From a virus, in the IMG/VR virus record IMGVR_UViG_3300045988_072726, positions 1 through 5,497 of that record: 5,497 nt of DNA, one strand, 5' to 3'. The first letter of the stretch is position 1. Each line of letters starts with the position of its first letter. Below, one piece after another: positions 1-5,497 of the stretch. The notes under the pieces are model-generated. The model searched no databases. It was not told where the DNA came from and saw nothing but the letters and a program-made list of their open reading frames with translations. The translations under genes were made by a program, and so were the position numbers.

Positions 1-55
1 TCAAAGACATGATAAAAGCCGGAATAAATCCAATACTAGCAGCACAGTTAGGTGC
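1..55. repeat. 55-nt terminal redundancy, identical to 5443..5497. This is circular-genome closure, not a biological repeat.
   Basis: Direct base-by-base comparison: tcaaagacatgataaaagccggaataaatccaatactagcagcacagttaggtgc occurs at both ends of the window. A single ORF (VP2) reads through the junction in frame. Confidence 0.9.
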
Positions 56-290
56 AACCGGCCTATCAGGTGGAAGCATGGCAAGCGCAGGACTGGCAAG
101 CGGAGCAATGGCCAGCGGACACACCGCACAAATGCAACAGCAAACCGTACCGGATATCATCCGAAAAATCGGTTACGCCATAACAACGGCAAAAGAAGCA
201 GCGAAAGGATTGGAGGGATACACAAAAGAACTAGCTAACGAGAAACTGAACAAATACGCGAAACAGGCAATTGGAAACCTGAAAGGCTAA
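1..290 (+). CDS. VP2: VP2 minor capsid / DNA pilot protein, C-terminal part. It continues the ORF that begins at 5121 and crosses the circular junction; the unique CDS is 5121..5442 plus 1..290, about 203 aa.
   Basis: The reading frame is continuous with 5121..5497 because the 5442-nt unit length is divisible by 3 and position 9 corresponds to 5451 in the same frame. The region translates to a Gly/Ala/Ser-rich stretch (GATGLSGGSMASAGLASGAMASGHTAQMQQQ) followed by a C-terminus ending at TAA 288-290. It sits immediately downstream of VP1, as in gokushoviruses. Confidence 0.8.
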   Translation, partial: KDMIKAGINPILAAQLGATGLSGGSMASAGLASGAMASGHTAQMQQQTVPDIIRKIGYAITTAKEAAKGLEGYTKELANEKLNKYAKQAIGNLKG

Positions 291-296
291 ATTTTT

Positions 297-360
297 GTGT
301 CAGTCAGCCCCATTGTAACAAGGAGGCAATGGGGCTGACTGACCGGCCGCACGGCGGCCG
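297..360 (+). promoter_or_regulatory. Tandem perfect stem-loops in the VP2-VP4 intergenic region. The first has a 17-bp stem (299-315 paired with 327-343) and an 11-nt loop containing AAGGAGG. The second has a 7-bp GC stem (344-350 paired with 354-360). They are candidate terminators or ssDNA secondary-structure elements.
   Basis: gtcagtcagccccattg (299-315) is the exact reverse complement of caatggggctgactgac (327-343). cggccgc (344-350) is the reverse complement of gcggccg (354-360). The structure sits between the VP2 stop (290) and the VP4 SD (365-372). Confidence 0.6.
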
Positions 361-380
361 AGAGAAAGGAGGTGAAAACA

Positions 381-1412
381 TTGCCATGTTATCATCCTTT
401 GCGGCGCTGGTGGTGGGGTGAAACCGACCAAGACGGGAAGCAAATCAACGCCAAAATTACAGGCTGGGAAGTTGATACACTATTCGAAAGGCCGGTAGGC
501 TTTGGAAAACTTCGCGGGAACTGGTCAGCGGAAGAATGGAGCGAGGAAATACCATGCGGAAAATGCATCGGATGCAGACTAGAATACAGCCGACAATGGG
601 CAAACCGCTGTATGCTTGAAGCGCAAGAATGGCCGGAAAACTGGTTTATAACACTAACCTACGACGATGCACATTTACCATTCAAAGAACGCATAAACAC
701 CAAAACCGGGGAAATGACGGAGGAATTCACGCCGTCATTATATCCGCCAGACATAACAAAATTTATGAAAGACCTCCGGCGATACTGGGAATACCACTAC
801 GGAGAGCAAAACATAAGGTTTTACGCATGCGGGGAATACGGAAGCCACACAGCAAGACCACACTACCACATAATAGCATTTAACCTAAAACTACACGACC
901 TACAACCATGCGGACGAAGCAAAAGCGGGAAAATGCAATGGGACAGTCCAGCAATCCGAAAAATATGGGGTAGAGGACTAACAGCACTAGGACATGTAGA
1001 ATATGATTCATGTGCATATGTCGCAAGATATATGCTGAAAAAACAGAAAGGAGAGAACGCAAAAAAATACTACGCAGAAATGGGACTCGAACCAGAATTT
1101 ACAAGAAGCAGCCGCCGGCCGGGCATTGCAGCAGGATATTTTGAGCGCAACAAGGAAAAAATATATCATTATGATGAAATCGTGTTACCGGGGAATAAAG
1201 TGATAAGACCTCCAAAATACTACGATAAGTTATACGATATAGAAAATCCGAAAGAACTTGAAACAATAAAAAGTGCGCGCAAAGCGGCGGCAAAAGAAGC
1301 AGAAAAGATAGAGCTTGCAAAAACAACACTAACAAAGGGTGAATTACTAGCACTCAAAGAACGAACTGCAAAAGAAAAAATGAAGAAACTTCCTCGAGAG
1401 CTTAACGAATAA
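381..1412 (+). CDS. VP4: VP4 replication initiation protein, a rolling-circle HUH endonuclease that is the gokushovirus analog of phiX174 gene A. The probable start is TTG 381; the ORF track begins at GTG 372.
   Basis: Contains the conserved PCGKCIGCR cysteine motif. Rolling-circle motif 1 is FITLTYDD (~645-668), the HUH motif is PHYHIIAFN (~861-887), and the catalytic two-tyrosine motif is YVARYMLKK (~1017-1043; compare phiX A protein YVAKYVNKK). The SD AAAGGAGGTG (365-374) is 6-8 nt upstream of TTG 381, whereas GTG 372 lies inside the SD itself. Confidence 0.9.
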   Translation: MPCYHPLRRWWWGETDQDGKQINAKITGWEVDTLFERPVGFGKLRGNWSAEEWSEEIPCGKCIGCRLEYSRQWANRCMLEAQEWPENWFITLTYDDAHLPFKERINTKTGEMTEEFTPSLYPPDITKFMKDLRRYWEYHYGEQNIRFYACGEYGSHTARPHYHIIAFNLKLHDLQPCGRSKSGKMQWDSPAIRKIWGRGLTALGHVEYDSCAYVARYMLKKQKGENAKKYYAEMGLEPEFTRSSRRPGIAAGYFERNKEKIYHYDEIVLPGNKVIRPPKYYDKLYDIENPKELETIKSARKAAAKEAEKIELAKTTLTKGELLALKERTAKEKMKKLPRELNE

Positions 1413-1418
1413 CCAAAC

Positions 1419-1458
1419 AAAGGGGGCAAGCCCCCTTTACCCCCCTGCAAAAGGGGGG
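1419..1458 (+). terminator. Two adjacent GC-rich hairpins immediately after the VP4 stop. One pairs aaagggggc with gcccccttt; the other pairs cccccc with gggggg across a tgcaaaa loop, followed by atttatttat. Likely an intrinsic terminator, possibly also a structured ssDNA element.
   Basis: 1419-1427 is the reverse complement of 1430-1438. 1440-1445 (cccccc) pairs with 1453-1458 (gggggg) with a 7-nt loop. A T/A-rich tract follows at 1459-1468. The element begins 7 nt downstream of TAA 1410-1412. Confidence 0.55.
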
Positions 1459-1503
1459 ATTTATTTATCCGGAGAAACATTATGCAAGATGTAAAAAAAT
1501 TTA

Positions 1504-1556
1504 CTGACACAATTGGTGAAATGCATATAGAAATACAAACAGAAAAATAGTATAAT
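1504..1556 (+). promoter_or_regulatory. Candidate sigma70-type promoter elements upstream of the 62-aa ORF. There is a perfect TATAAT at 1551-1556. An alternative pair is cTGACA (1504-1509) with TATAGA (1526-1531) at a 16-nt spacing.
   Basis: Hexamer matches were read directly from the sequence in the AT-rich 1459-1581 intergenic segment, and SD GGAG 1570-1573 precedes ATG 1582. The -35 partner for the TATAAT (tagaaa, 1528-1533) is weak. Confidence 0.35.
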
Positions 1557-1581
1557 AAGACCATAGAAAGGAGATAAAAAC

Positions 1582-1770
1582 ATGAAAATACAAAACACCG
1601 CATTCAAAAACAAAACAAACAGAGACATGGCCTACAAAGAATTAAAAGAACACAAAATCCGCTGCGATACCTACAACATAAAAGATGGGTATTATTATGT
1701 AGCATGGTGTCCCTACAACAAAGAGCAATATCAAAAAGCAGTAAAAATAGTGGAAAGCCACTTGGACTAA
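1582..1770 (+). CDS. Hypothetical 62-aa protein, an orphan small ORF. It has no recognisable family, contains two Cys, and is Lys/Tyr-rich.
   Basis: ATG is preceded by AAAGGAG (1567-1573). The ORF is in the same orientation as all other genes and fills the VP4-to-VP5-region gap, with a candidate promoter upstream. Confidence 0.5.
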   Translation: MKIQNTAFKNKTNRDMAYKELKEHKIRCDTYNIKDGYYYVAWCPYNKEQYQKAVKIVESHLD

Positions 1771-1788
1771 ATGAAAGGGGGTGAAAAA

Positions 1789-1902
1789 ATGACGAACCTA
1801 AACAGCGTAAGAAAAGACAAAAAGGTATTCAAAGAAACCGCAGCAAAAACCAAAAGAATCAACATCGCGCCCAAAGTAATGCGCGGCGGCATCAGACTGT
1901 AA
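1789..1902 (+). CDS. Small, highly basic 37-aa peptide (MTNLNSVRKDKKVFKETAAKTKRINIAPKVMRGGIRL). Candidate ssDNA-binding/packaging protein, like gokushovirus ORF8 or phiX174 J.
   Basis: It is not in the supplied ORF track because it is below the size cutoff. ATG 1789 is preceded by GGGGGTG (1777-1783), and the ORF ends at TAA 1900-1902. 11 of its 37 residues are K or R. Its position, between the rep gene and the scaffold/capsid genes, matches small basic J-like ORFs in other Microviridae. Confidence 0.5.
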   Translation: MTNLNSVRKDKKVFKETAAKTKRINIAPKVMRGGIRL

Positions 1903-1927
1903 ACAAAACAAAAAAGGAGAAAAAACG

Positions 1928-2185
1928 ATGAAAACCAACATTTACGCATTCAAAGACACGAAAATAGGCTTTATGCAGCCATTCCTCCAGCAGAACGAAG
2001 CAGTTGCCATGCGAACCTTAAAAATGGCCGTGAACGATGAACACAGCCAGATTAGAAACATGGCAGAAGATATCCAGCTTTATCAGCTGGGAACCTTTAA
2101 CGATGATACCGGCGAAATCAAACCGGAAGTAAAATTTATAGCAAACGCCATCGACCACAAAGAGGAAAAGAACAATGGAAATTAA
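1928..2185 (+). CDS. Hypothetical 85-aa acidic protein. Positionally it is a VP5-like (phiX C analog) candidate.
   Basis: AGGAG (1915-1919) lies 8 nt upstream of ATG 1928. It is on the same strand as the other genes. No motif I can assign. Confidence 0.5.
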   Translation: MKTNIYAFKDTKIGFMQPFLQQNEAVAMRTLKMAVNDEHSQIRNMAEDIQLYQLGTFNDDTGEIKPEVKFIANAIDHKEEKNNGN

Positions 2186-2348
2186 CGAACTGGTAAACAT
2201 CATCGGGACAATCGGTTTTCCGTGTGTAATTGCGCTGCTGCTCCTGAAAAACAATCAGGAGCAAGCAACCATCATACGAGAAAACACCAAAGTAATTCAG
2301 GCATTAGCCGACCGAATCGACAATGTGCTATCAAAAGGAGAAGAATAA
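2175..2348 (+). CDS. Putative holin, 57 aa, with a single N-terminal transmembrane helix and a charged C-terminal tail. BhlA/UviB-like topology.
   Basis: Translation is MEINELVNIIGTIGFPCVIALLLLKNNQEQATIIRENTKVIQALADRIDNVLSKGEE. It has one ~19-residue hydrophobic segment followed by a polar, coiled-coil-like tail. ATG 2175 follows GAGGAAAAG (2162-2170), and its stop TAA 2346-2348 abuts the amidase ATG 2349. It is not in the ORF track (under 60 aa). Confidence 0.5.
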   Translation: MEINELVNIIGTIGFPCVIALLLLKNNQEQATIIRENTKVIQALADRIDNVLSKGEE

Positions 2349-2957
2349 ATGAAGCTGCACACACGAATAGCATACAAAAATGCATGCTACCAAGAAGGAC
2401 AAAAGATGAAACCCAAGGGCATCATGATACACAGCACAGGATGCAACAATCCAAACCTACGAAGATATGTCGGGCCGGATGATGGAATCCTCGGAAAAAA
2501 CATCTACAAAAACCATTGGAACAACGCCTATCCGGGCGGGAAAGCAATATGCTGCCACGCATTCATAGGCAAAGACAAAAACGGAGAAATCCGAACCTAC
2601 AAAATATTACCATGGGATATGGTGGGCTGGCATTGTGGAGGAAAAGCAAACAAAACGCACATCGGCATCGAAATCTGCGAAGACCATCCAAACACAGAAC
2701 ACTACCGGGAAACATTCCGGGAAGCCGTAGAAGTAGCGGCATACTTATGCAGAGTATACCAAATCCAGCCGAAAAACATAATCAGCCACAAAGAGGGCCA
2801 CGCAAAAGGCATCGCAAGCAACCACGGAGATCCGGAACATTGGTGGATGAACTACGGTGTAACAATGGATCACTTCAGAACGGAAGTAGCAAAAGAACTC
2901 GACAGACACAAAAGCTATAACATGATGATATACGATGAGAAAGGGGAAAACACATGA
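2349..2957 (+). CDS. N-acetylmuramoyl-L-alanine amidase, Amidase_2/PGRP family (T7 lysozyme-like endolysin), 202 aa.
   Basis: Motifs align with T7 lysozyme: IMIHSTGCNNP matches IFVHCSATKP (Zn-ligand His). AICCHAFIGKDKNGEI matches GYHFIIKRDGTVE. WHCGGKANKTHIGIEIC matches GSHAKGYNHNSIGVCLVG. ISHKEGHAKGIASNHGDPEHWW matches AHHEVAPKACPSFDLKRWW. AAGGAG (2333-2338) lies upstream, and the stop overlaps the VP3 start (ATGA 2954-2957). Confidence 0.8.
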   Translation: MKLHTRIAYKNACYQEGQKMKPKGIMIHSTGCNNPNLRRYVGPDDGILGKNIYKNHWNNAYPGGKAICCHAFIGKDKNGEIRTYKILPWDMVGWHCGGKANKTHIGIEICEDHPNTEHYRETFREAVEVAAYLCRVYQIQPKNIISHKEGHAKGIASNHGDPEHWWMNYGVTMDHFRTEVAKELDRHKSYNMMIYDEKGENT

Positions 2958-3451
2958 ACTTTTACAGCCGGATTAACCCGGCGCCGGTAATCGAAGCGCC
3001 GGCCGGAAGCAAAGAAGCAACAACCTATCAAACACAAATAGACGAGAACGGCCACAAAGTAACGGTACCGACCGGAAAAACCAACATCTACGACCGCATT
3101 CAAAGCAGCCTTGAGGAAACCAAAATTGAAAACATCATCAAACGATTTACGGAAGGTGATATCTCGGCATTCAGACAGGGCGAACCGCTGTATGCAGACA
3201 TGACCGAAGCACCACGAACACTGATGGAAGCGCAGAACATGATAATCCGCATTACAAACGAATTCAACGAACTGCCAGTAGAGATAAGAGCAAAATTTGA
3301 CCACAGCCCGGAAAAATATGTTGCACTGTACGGCGGCGAAGCATGGGCGAAGGCAGTGGGCTATGAAATCAAAAAAGCCGACACAGGCGAAATTCAGGGC
3401 GCTGGCGATACCAGCACAGAACCTATTCCGGAACAGGAGGAGAAAGCATGA
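2954..3451 (+). CDS. VP3: VP3 internal scaffolding protein (analog of phiX174 B), 165 aa.
   Basis: It lies immediately upstream of, and translationally coupled to, VP1 (ATGA 3448-3451). The composition is acidic (EPIPEQEEKA tail). The sequence features IYDRIQSSLEE...NELPVEIRAKFDHSPEKYV are typical of gokushovirus VP3. Confidence 0.75.
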   Translation: MNFYSRINPAPVIEAPAGSKEATTYQTQIDENGHKVTVPTGKTNIYDRIQSSLEETKIENIIKRFTEGDISAFRQGEPLYADMTEAPRTLMEAQNMIIRITNEFNELPVEIRAKFDHSPEKYVALYGGEAWAKAVGYEIKKADTGEIQGAGDTSTEPIPEQEEKA

Positions 3452-5106
3452 ACAGAAACACCGAAAGCCATTTTTCAGTAAATCCGATAAACCTTGATAT
3501 CCAGCGAAGTAAATTCGTTAGACCATCGACACACAAAACCACATTCAACGCAGGAAACCTAATTCCAATTTATGTTGATGAAGTACTCCCGGGCGATACA
3601 TTCAAAATGAACATGAGCAGTGTAATTCGTATGAGCACGCCAATCTATCCGGTAATGGATAACGCCAACATGGATGTATACTTCTTCTTCGTACCTAACC
3701 GCCTAGTGTGGGAGCACTGGAAAGAGTTTTTCGGAGAAAACAACACGACACACTGGGAGCAACCAGTCGAATACGAGGTACCACAAATCACAGCACCGGC
3801 GGGAGGATGGGCAAAAGGAACAATCGCCGACTATATGGGCATTCCGACGCTCATTAGTAATATCAGCGTGCAAGCACTGCCTTTCAGGGCATACTGTAAA
3901 ATATGGAATGACTGGTTCCGCGACCAGAACTTAAAAGACCCGGCTATGATAAGCCTTGACGAAACAACCACGGCCGGAGCCAACACCGGGGACTATGTAA
4001 CCAACGCAGAAAAGGGAGCGCTACCGCTTAAAGTAGCAAAATACCATGACTATTTCACAGCGGCATTACCGGAACCGCAAAAAGGGCCGGAAGTCACAAT
4101 CGGCGGCGTAGGCGGCTACATGCCTGTAATTACAAGGGATGAACTTGTAACCGACACAGAAAAAAACATGAAGTGGTACACACCGGGCAACACCACAGCA
4201 ACCAATTATGCACTTGGATATACGAGCCAAGTAAATGCAAGAGGAGCAAACGACATAAAAACGGCCGTATACGGAAGCGGATTCGTAAACCAAAATCCAA
4301 TAGCACCGGCTAACCTTTGGGCAGATATGACCGTAGGAACAGCTACCAGCATTAACGCACTGCGGCAGGCGTTTGCAATTCAACGATTGTACGAGAAGAA
4401 CGCACGAGGCGGAACAAGGTACATCGAAATCATAAAGGCGCATTTTGGGGTACAATCACCGGATGCAAGGCAGCAACGAAGTGAATACCTCGGCGGAACT
4501 CGCGTACCCATCAACATGGACCAAGTAGTACAGACATCCAACACGGCCGAGGGCAGCACACCGCAGGGTAACACGGCTGCATACTCTCTGACGGCATTCA
4601 ATGAAAGCATGTTCACAAAATCGTTTACCGAACACGGATACATTATCGGCCTTGCATGCATCAGAACGGAACACACATACCAGCAGGGCATAGAACGGTT
4701 TTGGAGCCGAAAAAAGATGCTGGACTATTATTTCCCGACATTGGCAAACCTCGGAGAACAGGCCATCCTTAACAAAGAAATCTATGCACAAGGGAGCACA
4801 ACAGACGATGAAGCATTCGGGTACCAAGAAGCATGGGCAGAATACCGATACAAGCCGAGCCGAGTATCGGGAGCAATGCGAAGCAACTACCAAACCACAC
4901 TGGACGCATGGCACTATGCAGACAAATACACAAGCCAGCCGATTTTATCAAGCGAATGGATTGATGAAACAAGCGCCAACATTGATAGAACACTGGCCGT
5001 ACAAAGCGCCACCGAAGACCAATTCATAGCAGACTTTTATTTTGCCTGCGAAGCAACAAGACCAATGCCGCTATACAGCATTCCGGGCCTGATTGACCAT
5101 CACTAA
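3448..5106 (+). CDS. VP1: VP1 major capsid protein (Microviridae F-protein fold), 552 aa.
   Basis: The N-terminus MNRNTESHFSVNPINLDIQRSKFVRPSTHKTTFNAGNLIPIYVDEVLPGDTFK carries the canonical gokushovirus VP1 signature (HFS...RS.F...HKTTF.AG.L.P...LPGD.F). It is the longest ORF. GGAGGAG (3436-3442) is upstream, and TAA falls at 5104-5106. Confidence 0.95.
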   Translation: MNRNTESHFSVNPINLDIQRSKFVRPSTHKTTFNAGNLIPIYVDEVLPGDTFKMNMSSVIRMSTPIYPVMDNANMDVYFFFVPNRLVWEHWKEFFGENNTTHWEQPVEYEVPQITAPAGGWAKGTIADYMGIPTLISNISVQALPFRAYCKIWNDWFRDQNLKDPAMISLDETTTAGANTGDYVTNAEKGALPLKVAKYHDYFTAALPEPQKGPEVTIGGVGGYMPVITRDELVTDTEKNMKWYTPGNTTATNYALGYTSQVNARGANDIKTAVYGSGFVNQNPIAPANLWADMTVGTATSINALRQAFAIQRLYEKNARGGTRYIEIIKAHFGVQSPDARQQRSEYLGGTRVPINMDQVVQTSNTAEGSTPQGNTAAYSLTAFNESMFTKSFTEHGYIIGLACIRTEHTYQQGIERFWSRKKMLDYYFPTLANLGEQAILNKEIYAQGSTTDDEAFGYQEAWAEYRYKPSRVSGAMRSNYQTTLDAWHYADKYTSQPILSSEWIDETSANIDRTLAVQSATEDQFIADFYFACEATRPMPLYSIPGLIDHH

Positions 5107-5120
5107 AGGAGGGGCAAACA

Positions 5121-5497
5121 ATGGCAGGAAGTAGGGGCCGAAACCTATTCGGACGAGACAAAAACCTCTATCAAGCCGGACAAAAAGCAGTAAATGCAGC
5201 AATAACCGGATTAGGGCTAGCACTCAACCCAATAGGAAACACCACAGCAACAGCCGAAGCAGCATTCAACAAAAGCCAAATGAGCGCAAAACAAGCAATG
5301 GCATTCGAAGCCAGCCAAGCAGCGCAACAAATGGCATTCCAGCGGGAAATGCTACAAAACCAAATGCGTTTCAACAGCGCAGAAGCTGAAACCAACAGAG
5401 CATGGCAAAGACAAATGAGACAAACAGCATACCAAGACACAGTCAAAGACATGATAAAAGCCGGAATAAATCCAATACTAGCAGCACAGTTAGGTGC
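5121..5497 (+). CDS. VP2: VP2 minor capsid / DNA pilot protein, N-terminal part. The ORF runs off the window end and continues at 1..290 through the circular junction.
   Basis: ATG 5121 is preceded by AAAGGAGGGG (5106-5115). No stop occurs before the window end. The translation MAGSRGRNLFGRDKNLYQAGQKAVNAAITGLGLALNPIGN...QMAFQREMLQNQMRFNSAEAETNRAWQRQMRQTAYQDTVKDMIKAGINPILAAQ carries the conserved gokushovirus VP2 motif (QxxFNxxEA...WQ..M..TAYQ....D...AG.NP.L). Confidence 0.85.
   Translation, partial: MAGSRGRNLFGRDKNLYQAGQKAVNAAITGLGLALNPIGNTTATAEAAFNKSQMSAKQAMAFEASQAAQQMAFQREMLQNQMRFNSAEAETNRAWQRQMRQTAYQDTVKDMIKAGINPILAAQLG

Follow-up and report, generated by a model that had tools for sequence, protein, structure and literature searches.

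Organization of the window and its clade

The window analysed here is the whole of a 5,497-nt stretch of viral DNA, positions 1 to 5,497 of IMG/VR record IMGVR_UViG_3300045988_072726; our interest is in the host of the gokushovirus that it encodes and in a two-gene cassette, a 57-aa holin candidate followed by an Amidase_2 endolysin, which lies between the VP5 and VP3 genes. Positions 1-55 are identical to positions 5443-5497, and this 55-nt terminal redundancy indicates a circular genome with a 5442-nt unit that was read slightly past its own end. The circle has a G+C content of 45.5%, all nine of its genes lie on the + strand, and matches to Pfam and PHROG profiles account for a complete gokushovirus gene set (Rep/VP4, VP5, VP3, VP1 and VP2). 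The genes, with the Shine-Dalgarno (SD) site of VP2, are as follows.

381-1412, +: Rep/VP4 replication initiator, 343 aa (PF23343, E=4e-19; phrog_942, E=5e-117)
1582-1770, +: orf62, with a strong AAGGAG SD site
1789-1902, +: orf37, small basic protein, VP8/J-like DNA-binding candidate (phrog_10695, E=7e-9)
1928-2185, +: VP5, Phage_ORF5 (PF20577, E=4e-22)
2175-2348, +: 57-aa holin candidate (phrog_4898 'holin', E=4.6e-5; hydropathy)
2349-2957, +: Amidase_2 endolysin, a predicted N-acetylmuramoyl-L-alanine amidase, 202 aa (PF01510, E=4e-17; phrog_15001, E=2e-51)
2954-3451, +: VP3 internal scaffolding protein (PF09675, E=7e-35)
3448-5106, +: VP1 major capsid protein, 552 aa (PF02305, E=2e-176)
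5106-5114, +: SD site of VP2, AAGGAGGGG (SD energy -12.5)
5121-5497 then 56-290, +: VP2 DNA-pilot protein, 203 aa, wrapping round the circle, with its 3' part seen in the window as 1-290 (PHROG pilot families, E down to 6e-24)

Orf37 is kept in relatives and in the prophages described below, where it is matched by tblastn. Orf62 has no family match and gave no tblastn match in any relative or prophage examined, which suggests a private or variable-region gene.

With a Phage_F capsid protein, a Rep, a pilot protein, Chlamy_scaf and VP5 encoded on one strand of a circle within the range of ~4.5-6 kb, the window has the features of the Microviridae and Gokushovirinae, and by its sequence it is a complete gokushovirus genome of the WZ-2015a-like clade in 'Family 3, Gokushovirinae B' of Kirchberger et al. 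(2022; PMC9239249). Nucleotide identity to pig-faeces Microviridae and to Gokushovirus WZ-2015a, which came from a human sample, is 84-87% over 55-92% of the genome, and hundreds of metagenomic circles of 5.2-5.5 kb encode capsid proteins 83-98% identical to that of the window. Gokushovirus WZ-2015a (KT264796), the pig-faeces genomes MG945319, MG945538 and MG945385, and others have the same gene order, the 57-aa gene and the amidase included; the window is set apart from records of the KT264796/MG945319 type by orf62 and by the TTG start of Rep. Those records label the amidase 'hypothetical' or leave it unannotated, give no annotation for the 57-aa gene and assign no host, and the literature on 'WZ-2015a' and on microvirus holins and endolysins yielded no host assignment or cassette description for the clade. 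Most gut gokushoviruses, this widespread pig and human clade among them, are without an assigned host. To our knowledge, microviruses are among the most abundant gut phages and none with a Gram-positive or monoderm host has been cultured.

The putative holin-endolysin cassette

Hydropathy analysis of the 57-aa protein predicts an acidic N-terminus, one transmembrane segment (approximately residues 7-24) and an amphipathic C-terminus. Its gene overlaps the end of VP5 by 11 nt and stops 3 nt before the ATG of the amidase, so that the pair has the layout of a holin-endolysin cassette, in which the gene of a small membrane protein adjoins that of a signal-less muralytic enzyme. A first-pass annotation of the window had compared the protein with BhlA/UviB holins; the likeness in topology stands (an N-terminal transmembrane segment and a charged C-terminus), but the sequence lends it no support, and membership of that family was rejected as there is no Holin_BhlA match even at E<=10. 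The sole Pfam similarity is to YvrJ over the transmembrane helix, at 12-18 bits against a cut-off of 29.5. Outside the microviruses, homologues 60-75% identical to the 57-aa protein occur in ~15-kb genomes of phi29-like podophages from the human gut, on contigs that encode a Phi29 SSB, a protein-primed DNA polymerase, the gp16 ATPase and a Phi29-type capsid and connector. Cultured phages with related capsids have as hosts Hungatella, Clostridium symbiosum, C. perfringens, Bacillus, Enterococcus, Streptococcus and actinobacteria, and the cultured phi29-like relatives infect almost only Gram-positive bacteria. On two of the podophage contigs (L020 7830-8003 and L018 2615-2812; L-numbers denote the contigs and loci compared) the homologue is flanked by the gp16 packaging ATPase on one side and the scaffold/capsid genes on the other, a long way from the GH25 lysozyme (L020 3353-4123), and its role in these podophages may not be a classical one.

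The assignment of the endolysin to Amidase_2, likewise made at first pass, is firm, with PF01510 scoring 63.2 bits against a gathering cut-off of 26. The enzyme consists of the catalytic domain only, with no wall-binding domain, and its hydrophilic N-terminus indicates that a signal or signal-anchor sequence is absent. The solved structures that match it in the PDB are PlyL and XlyA of Bacillus. In the alignment with PlyL, E108 of the window enzyme ('IGIEIC') falls on the glutamate ('ISVEIC') that is replaced by alanine in 2ar3, and H28 and H147 lie opposite PlyL histidines; a third metal ligand was not located in this alignment.

The microvirus amidases form a tight group with 73-89% identity. 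Their next relatives, at <=60%, are longer, with added SPOR, LysM, PG_binding_1, SH3, SLH or CW_7 modules. The nearest amidases from outside the microviruses, at 52-58%, are tailed-phage endolysins of Oscillospirales, Oscillospiraceae, Evtepia and Anaerosphaera from a phage collection, followed by those of Blautia and Faecalimonas phages at ~39%; the named homologues come from Clostridium sporogenes, Proteiniclasticum, Pseudogracilibacillus, Listeria, Oceanobacillus, Vagococcus, Amphibacillus and similar genera. A holin gene directly upstream of a signal-less Amidase_2 gene is also the arrangement of canonical cassettes in tailed Firmicutes phages (Oscillospiraceae phage NatCom_11393; Bacillus PlyL and XlyA). 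While the catalytic domains are 52-58% identical, the tailed-phage amidases carry their own C-terminal SPOR, LysM, PG_binding or CW_7 modules and the microvirus copy is 202 aa long; the NatCom_11393 holin is a different protein, of 139 aa rather than 57. Gut gokushoviruses with a Peptidase_M15_3 of the Faecalibacterium/Anaerofustis type (Roux et al., 2012; PMC3394797) have likewise acquired a peptidoglycan hydrolase horizontally from Clostridiales or their phages, but there the enzyme is an M15 peptidase, whereas the window has an Amidase_2 with an identifiable holin partner directly upstream.

The cassette is dispensable among close relatives, as in sister genomes with 78% and 67% capsid identity VP5 leads directly to VP3. 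That these genomes and the related prophages manage without it would fit a different function, with the 57-aa protein acting as something other than a holin and the amidase taking no part in lysis, the pair serving instead as a virion-associated or entry hydrolase or in superinfection, and lysis being left to an unrecognised single-gene lysis protein, as in phiX174. The placement of the phi29-like homologue away from the GH25 lysozyme and the sub-threshold YvrJ similarity, the only one in Pfam, point the same way. We consider such a function improbable, given that the 57-aa protein matches a 'holin' PHROG, that a small transmembrane protein directly upstream of a signal-less endolysin is the classic arrangement, and that the amidase matches endolysin PHROGs at E=2e-51 and is found in tailed-phage lysis modules.

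Shine-Dalgarno sites and the start of Rep

A strong AAGGAG(G) before nearly every gene had been taken at first pass as a hallmark of Gram-positive expression. AGGAG is present at six of the nine genes and ends 5-8 nt before the start codon, in agreement with the 5-9 nt spacing then given; the other three have weaker purine runs (GAGGA at the holin gene, AAGGGG at VP3 and GGGGGTG at orf37). A purine-rich SD site is therefore found at all nine genes, while AAGGAG itself, at only five of them, had been overstated. SD strength was measured as duplex energy with the 3' tail of 16S rRNA, using 20-nt windows from the same genome as the random control. The energy is -6 kcal/mol or lower at 9/9 genes, with a mean of -11.9 against -3.2 for random windows, and in 100,000 random draws of nine windows the strength of the nine real upstream regions was never reached. 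Genome-wide, AGGAG is not enriched (11 observed, 9.5 expected) owing to the purine-rich strand; it is the placement of the motif that is non-random.

The TTG start proposed for Rep is credible, since AAGGAGG at 366-372 precedes it with an 8-nt spacer and relatives start at the homologous codon. That codon is ATG in two of the relatives and TTG in one, and this mixture marks TTG as a polymorphism rather than a conserved trait. GTG372 was rejected as an alternative start because it overlaps the SD site and the relatives begin at the position of TTG381.

Seven microviruses tied to monoderm Firmicutes by integration or by clustered regularly interspaced short palindromic repeats (CRISPR) have mean SD energies of -7.1 to -11.6 kcal/mol, and five tied to two-membrane hosts (Chp2, phiMH2K, EC6098, the Parasutterella-linked MG945318 and a Phascolarctobacterium prophage) have means of -4.3 to -7.3 kcal/mol; in this small sample, with some start codons approximate, the difference between the two sets is significant at the level of genomes (Mann-Whitney p=0.010) and of genes (p=5e-5). 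The window (-11.9) differs from the diderm set (p=0.002) and sits with the monoderm set (p=0.69), and the sister genomes that lack the cassette have mean energies of -12.5 and -11.8. The comparison thus bears out the SD sites as a Firmicutes-type signal.

Integrated relatives in Clostridia

Of two scans of GTDB genomes, the second, made with an alignment of the clade's capsid proteins, gave 15 loci, a retrieval biased by the use of only two peptide motifs from the window's clade. The closest capsid relatives, at 56-61% identity, lie on contigs of 21-153 kb from metagenome-assembled genomes labelled Lachnospiraceae, Christensenella, Clostridia and Bacillota, host names that rest on record titles. 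Their gene order, orf37-VP5-VP3-VP1-VP2-VP4, is that of the window. The flanking DNA encodes SerRS, TopA, Tgt, MutS, RecJ, MiaB, PBP and methionine gamma-lyase, as well as an AddA that passes the threshold of the Gram-positive-type equivalog. Direct repeats of 42-93 nt, spaced 5.1-5.4 kb apart, flank three of the four loci searched (L004, L006 and L009), examples being a palindrome-containing repeat of 43 nt in L006 (3628/8997) and one of 93 nt in L009 (1/5239); none was found at the fourth, L007. The window's gene order, the housekeeping flanks and the repeats in three of four loci identify these elements as real prophages. In all four, a gene for a XerS-like tyrosine recombinase lies 1-3 kb beyond VP4:

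L004 16586-17638: XerS-like recombinase gene
L006 9717-10763: XerS-like recombinase gene
L007 14485-15513: XerS-like recombinase gene
L009 6393-7418: XerS-like recombinase gene

By analogy with Enterogokushovirus, these positions suggest integration at a dif-like site. The prophages of the Clostridia genomes (L002, L004, L006, L007, L009 and L015) resemble the window in core synteny and in equally strong SD sites, with capsids 49-61% identical to its own; they differ in being integrated and in lacking the holin and amidase, the window's clade having been seen only as free circles. A search for related prophages in Firmicutes genomes, which the first-pass annotation had put forward as a check on the host, thus found relatives in genomes of the class Clostridia and none belonging to the window's clade.

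A more distant prophage, with a capsid 45% identical to that of the window, was found in Phascolarctobacterium, a two-membrane (diderm) Firmicute:

L013 9950-14549: Phascolarctobacterium microvirus prophage, on a 113-kb contig, with weak SD sites

Clade contigs of 11.3, 7.6 and 7.1 kb (L001, L030 and L031) were considered as prophages and rejected, having no bacterial flanks and being tandem or concatemer assemblies. The 11.3-kb NCBI contig (L001 1-11339) holds two different genomes of the clade in tandem, with capsids 86% and 88% and VP2 proteins 88% and 62% identical to those of the window, and represents either a chimeric assembly or co-replicating relatives. Beside the Clostridia prophage of L015, positions 2524-5757 encode a CcrB-like large serine recombinase and a Cch-like helicase, which suggests that this prophage lies beside or inside an SCC-like mobile element. 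The gene adjoining the Christensenella prophage (L004 14297-15193) has a weak match, below the cut-off, to DS2_2, a family of anti-phage nucleotidyltransferases (E=1.4e-10).

Capsid phylogeny and the host of the window

Capsid trees, built by neighbour-joining only and with a bipartition-counting bootstrap, divide the sequences into two groups with 99-100% support. The first comprises Chp2 (Chlamydia), phiMH2K (Bdellovibrio), EC6098 (Escherichia), the Phascolarctobacterium prophage and two small binned contigs; the second comprises the window's clade, eight Clostridia loci and SpV4. MG945382, KT264793 and MG945753, which are CRISPR-linked to Faecalibacterium and listed as Gokushovirinae B (Kirchberger et al., 2022, Table S1; PMC9239249), fall among the Clostridia prophages in the capsid tree. 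The grouping of L013 with the gokushoviruses of Chlamydia and Escherichia is a separate observation, and it suggests that the capsid lineage follows the type of envelope and not the phylum of the host.

Taken together, the integrated relatives in Clostridia, the strength of the SD sites and the Firmicutes-side relatives of the amidase and holin support a Firmicutes-type host, as first proposed, and this host is probably a member of the Bacillota, most likely of the monoderm Clostridia, with Oscillospiraceae, Lachnospiraceae or Christensenellales as best guesses. A microvirus that infects Gram-positive bacteria is not in itself the novelty that it had been taken for. Roux et al. (2012; PMC3394797) described Faecalibacterium-type M15 peptidases in gut gokushoviruses and suggested Gram-positive hosts, and Kirchberger et al. 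(2022; PMC9239249) reported prophages in isolates of Erysipelatoclostridium and Mammaliicoccus, the first Gram-positive cases, as well as peptidase and amidase accessory genes in several microvirus families. With the idea already published, the value of the window is that of a well-supported example with a testable host range. What is added here is modest: a holin partner that had gone unannotated, the near-identity of this holin to a phi29-like gene, the cassette as a recent gain, and a set of clearly integrated Clostridia prophages adjoining XerS-like genes. With this converging evidence, attempts at isolation can concentrate on hosts from the Oscillospiraceae, Lachnospiraceae and Christensenellales.

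A number of observations weigh against this assignment. The searches yielded no integrated member of the window's own clade, whose contigs are all free genomes or concatemers, and the first, capsid-only scan of one genome per GTDB species found no close relative of the clade; to these are added the biased retrieval of the second scan and the reliance on record titles for host names. Outside the split from the diderm group, support for the major groups of the capsid tree is low, and only the window's clade and a few small pairs are firm. Strong SD sites occur in many Proteobacteria phages too and so are not specific. The close relatives KT264796, MG945319 and others are entered as 'Family3_GokushovirinaeB' with the host left blank in the table of PMC9239249. 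As the window's own clade has neither a CRISPR nor a prophage link, we infer the host, together with the functions of the holin and amidase, for what would be a lytic gut virus.

Further contrary evidence bears on a rival explanation, which places the virus in a Gram-negative or diderm bacterium of the gut, such as Parasutterella or one of the Negativicutes, and ascribes the lysis genes and SD sites to horizontal transfer and general phage optimisation. MG945318, CRISPR-linked to the betaproteobacterium Parasutterella, has a capsid 56% identical to that of the window, a value that matches the Clostridia prophages and shows that the host phylum cannot be read from capsid distance alone. Outside the capsid, however, it is much less similar, with VP4 at 37-39% (42-51% for the Clostridia prophages), VP5 at 28% (36-50%) and VP3 at 34%, and its SD sites are weaker (-7.3). 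The Phascolarctobacterium prophage, for its part, groups with Chp2 and EC6098 and not with the window. A bare catalytic domain is more typical of endolysins from Gram-negative phages, where it is the usual form, but no spanin-like gene accompanies the cassette. The hosts of cultured gokushoviruses, as far as we know and as given in record host fields, are all two-membrane or wall-less bacteria, and the clade itself has no host link; on the other side, the named relatives of the amidase and holin are all monoderm Firmicutes or their phages, with the exception of one outlying amidase from Dehalococcoides. On balance we regard a diderm host as unlikely and retain the monoderm Clostridia.

A host among the Bacteroidota, which dominate the gut and are known to be infected by gut Alpavirinae, appears barely credible. 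Bacteroidota largely do without SD-led initiation, and every gene of the window has a well-placed SD site. No Bacteroidota genome was present among the capsid relatives at the 15 loci of the GTDB scan, the lysis genes are without named Bacteroidota relatives, and the genes present (Chlamy_scaf, Phage_ORF5) mark a gokushovirus rather than an alpavirus. These points stand against the origin of the virus in gut samples and the microvirus prophages known in Bacteroidales (PMC3394797), which would favour such a host.

Origin of the cassette and a proposed mode of lysis

None of the Clostridia prophages carries the amidase or the 57-aa gene, and the absence of the cassette from these and from the sister genomes points to a recent insertion between VP5 and VP3 in one sub-clade. 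The relatives of the amidase and holin suggest that both genes came from the gene pool of phages that infect Gram-positive bacteria, and the very high identity of the holin argues for recent exchange, most easily explained by shared hosts; it is from such sequence comparisons that we infer the direction and recency of the transfer. It had been argued at first pass that an endolysin was needed to break through a thick cell wall. This argument fails, as the sister genomes and the Clostridia prophages do without the cassette. Moreover, Christensenellaceae and many Oscillospiraceae are monoderm and are not thick-walled in the classical sense.

We propose that a lineage of microviruses with monoderm Clostridia as hosts has only recently acquired, as one complete module, the two holin-endolysin genes of tailed double-stranded DNA phages that infect the same bacteria, a proposal for which we see the chances as evenly divided; the captured module may have replaced or supplemented single-gene lysis. 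In the reading with a Clostridia host, which we consider probable, strong Firmicutes-style SD sites drive translation of the virus genes, and the cassette was taken from tailed phages of the same host range and inserted between VP5 and VP3 only recently. To judge from homology and gene arrangement, the single-span 57-aa holin would accumulate in the membrane late in infection and open it, after which the cytoplasmic amidase would reach the wall and cleave the MurNAc-L-Ala bond. The donor enzyme would have shed its wall-binding module, plausibly because a T=1 capsid limits genome size, and what is left, a 202-aa amidase, could act as a minimal enzyme on the cell walls of Clostridia. The end result would be like that of E-type single-gene lysis in phiX174, microvirus progeny being released by lysis, but the mode differs in that phiX174 E inhibits wall synthesis while the window has a muralytic enzyme and a membrane protein.

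If correct, the proposal would provide a clear case of gene flow between virus realms, with a holin still 75% identical to a phi29-like gene and a trimmed amidase, and the shared genes would offer a practical way to find the host and to culture the first Gram-positive microvirus. The cassette suggests that even 5-kb single-stranded DNA phages exchange lysis genes with tailed phages.

Hairpins, promoters and base composition

The following non-coding features were noted in the window.

299-360, +: two stacked hairpins in the gap from the stop codon of VP2 to the SD site of Rep (DNA fold -30.7 kcal/mol, z=-8.4)
1419-1468, +: pair of GC hairpins downstream of Rep, of which the second has a T-rich tail behind it and resembles a terminator
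1528-1556, +: best sigma-70/SigA-like promoter match, TAGAAA-17-TATAAT, 10/12, upstream of orf62

The first of the stacked hairpins (299-343) has a perfect 18-bp stem and exposes AAGGAGG in a 9-nt loop, and the second (344-360), with a 7-bp GC stem, follows it directly; for the pair, the roles of terminator, complementary-strand origin and recombination site are all conceivable. A scan for promoters and terminators gave counts no higher than in shuffled sequence, and these elements were consequently left out of the host evidence. Between the prophages and the host DNA on either side of them, G+C content diverges by as much as 11 points; given this gap and the strand-biased single-stranded DNA genome, G+C and k-mer matching were judged unreliable as host signals. 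The coding strand of the window is A-rich and T-poor (A 38%, T 16%, G 23%, C 23%), a skew that is not seen in Chp2 or EC6098 but is common to the clade and to the L004, L006 and L009 prophages.

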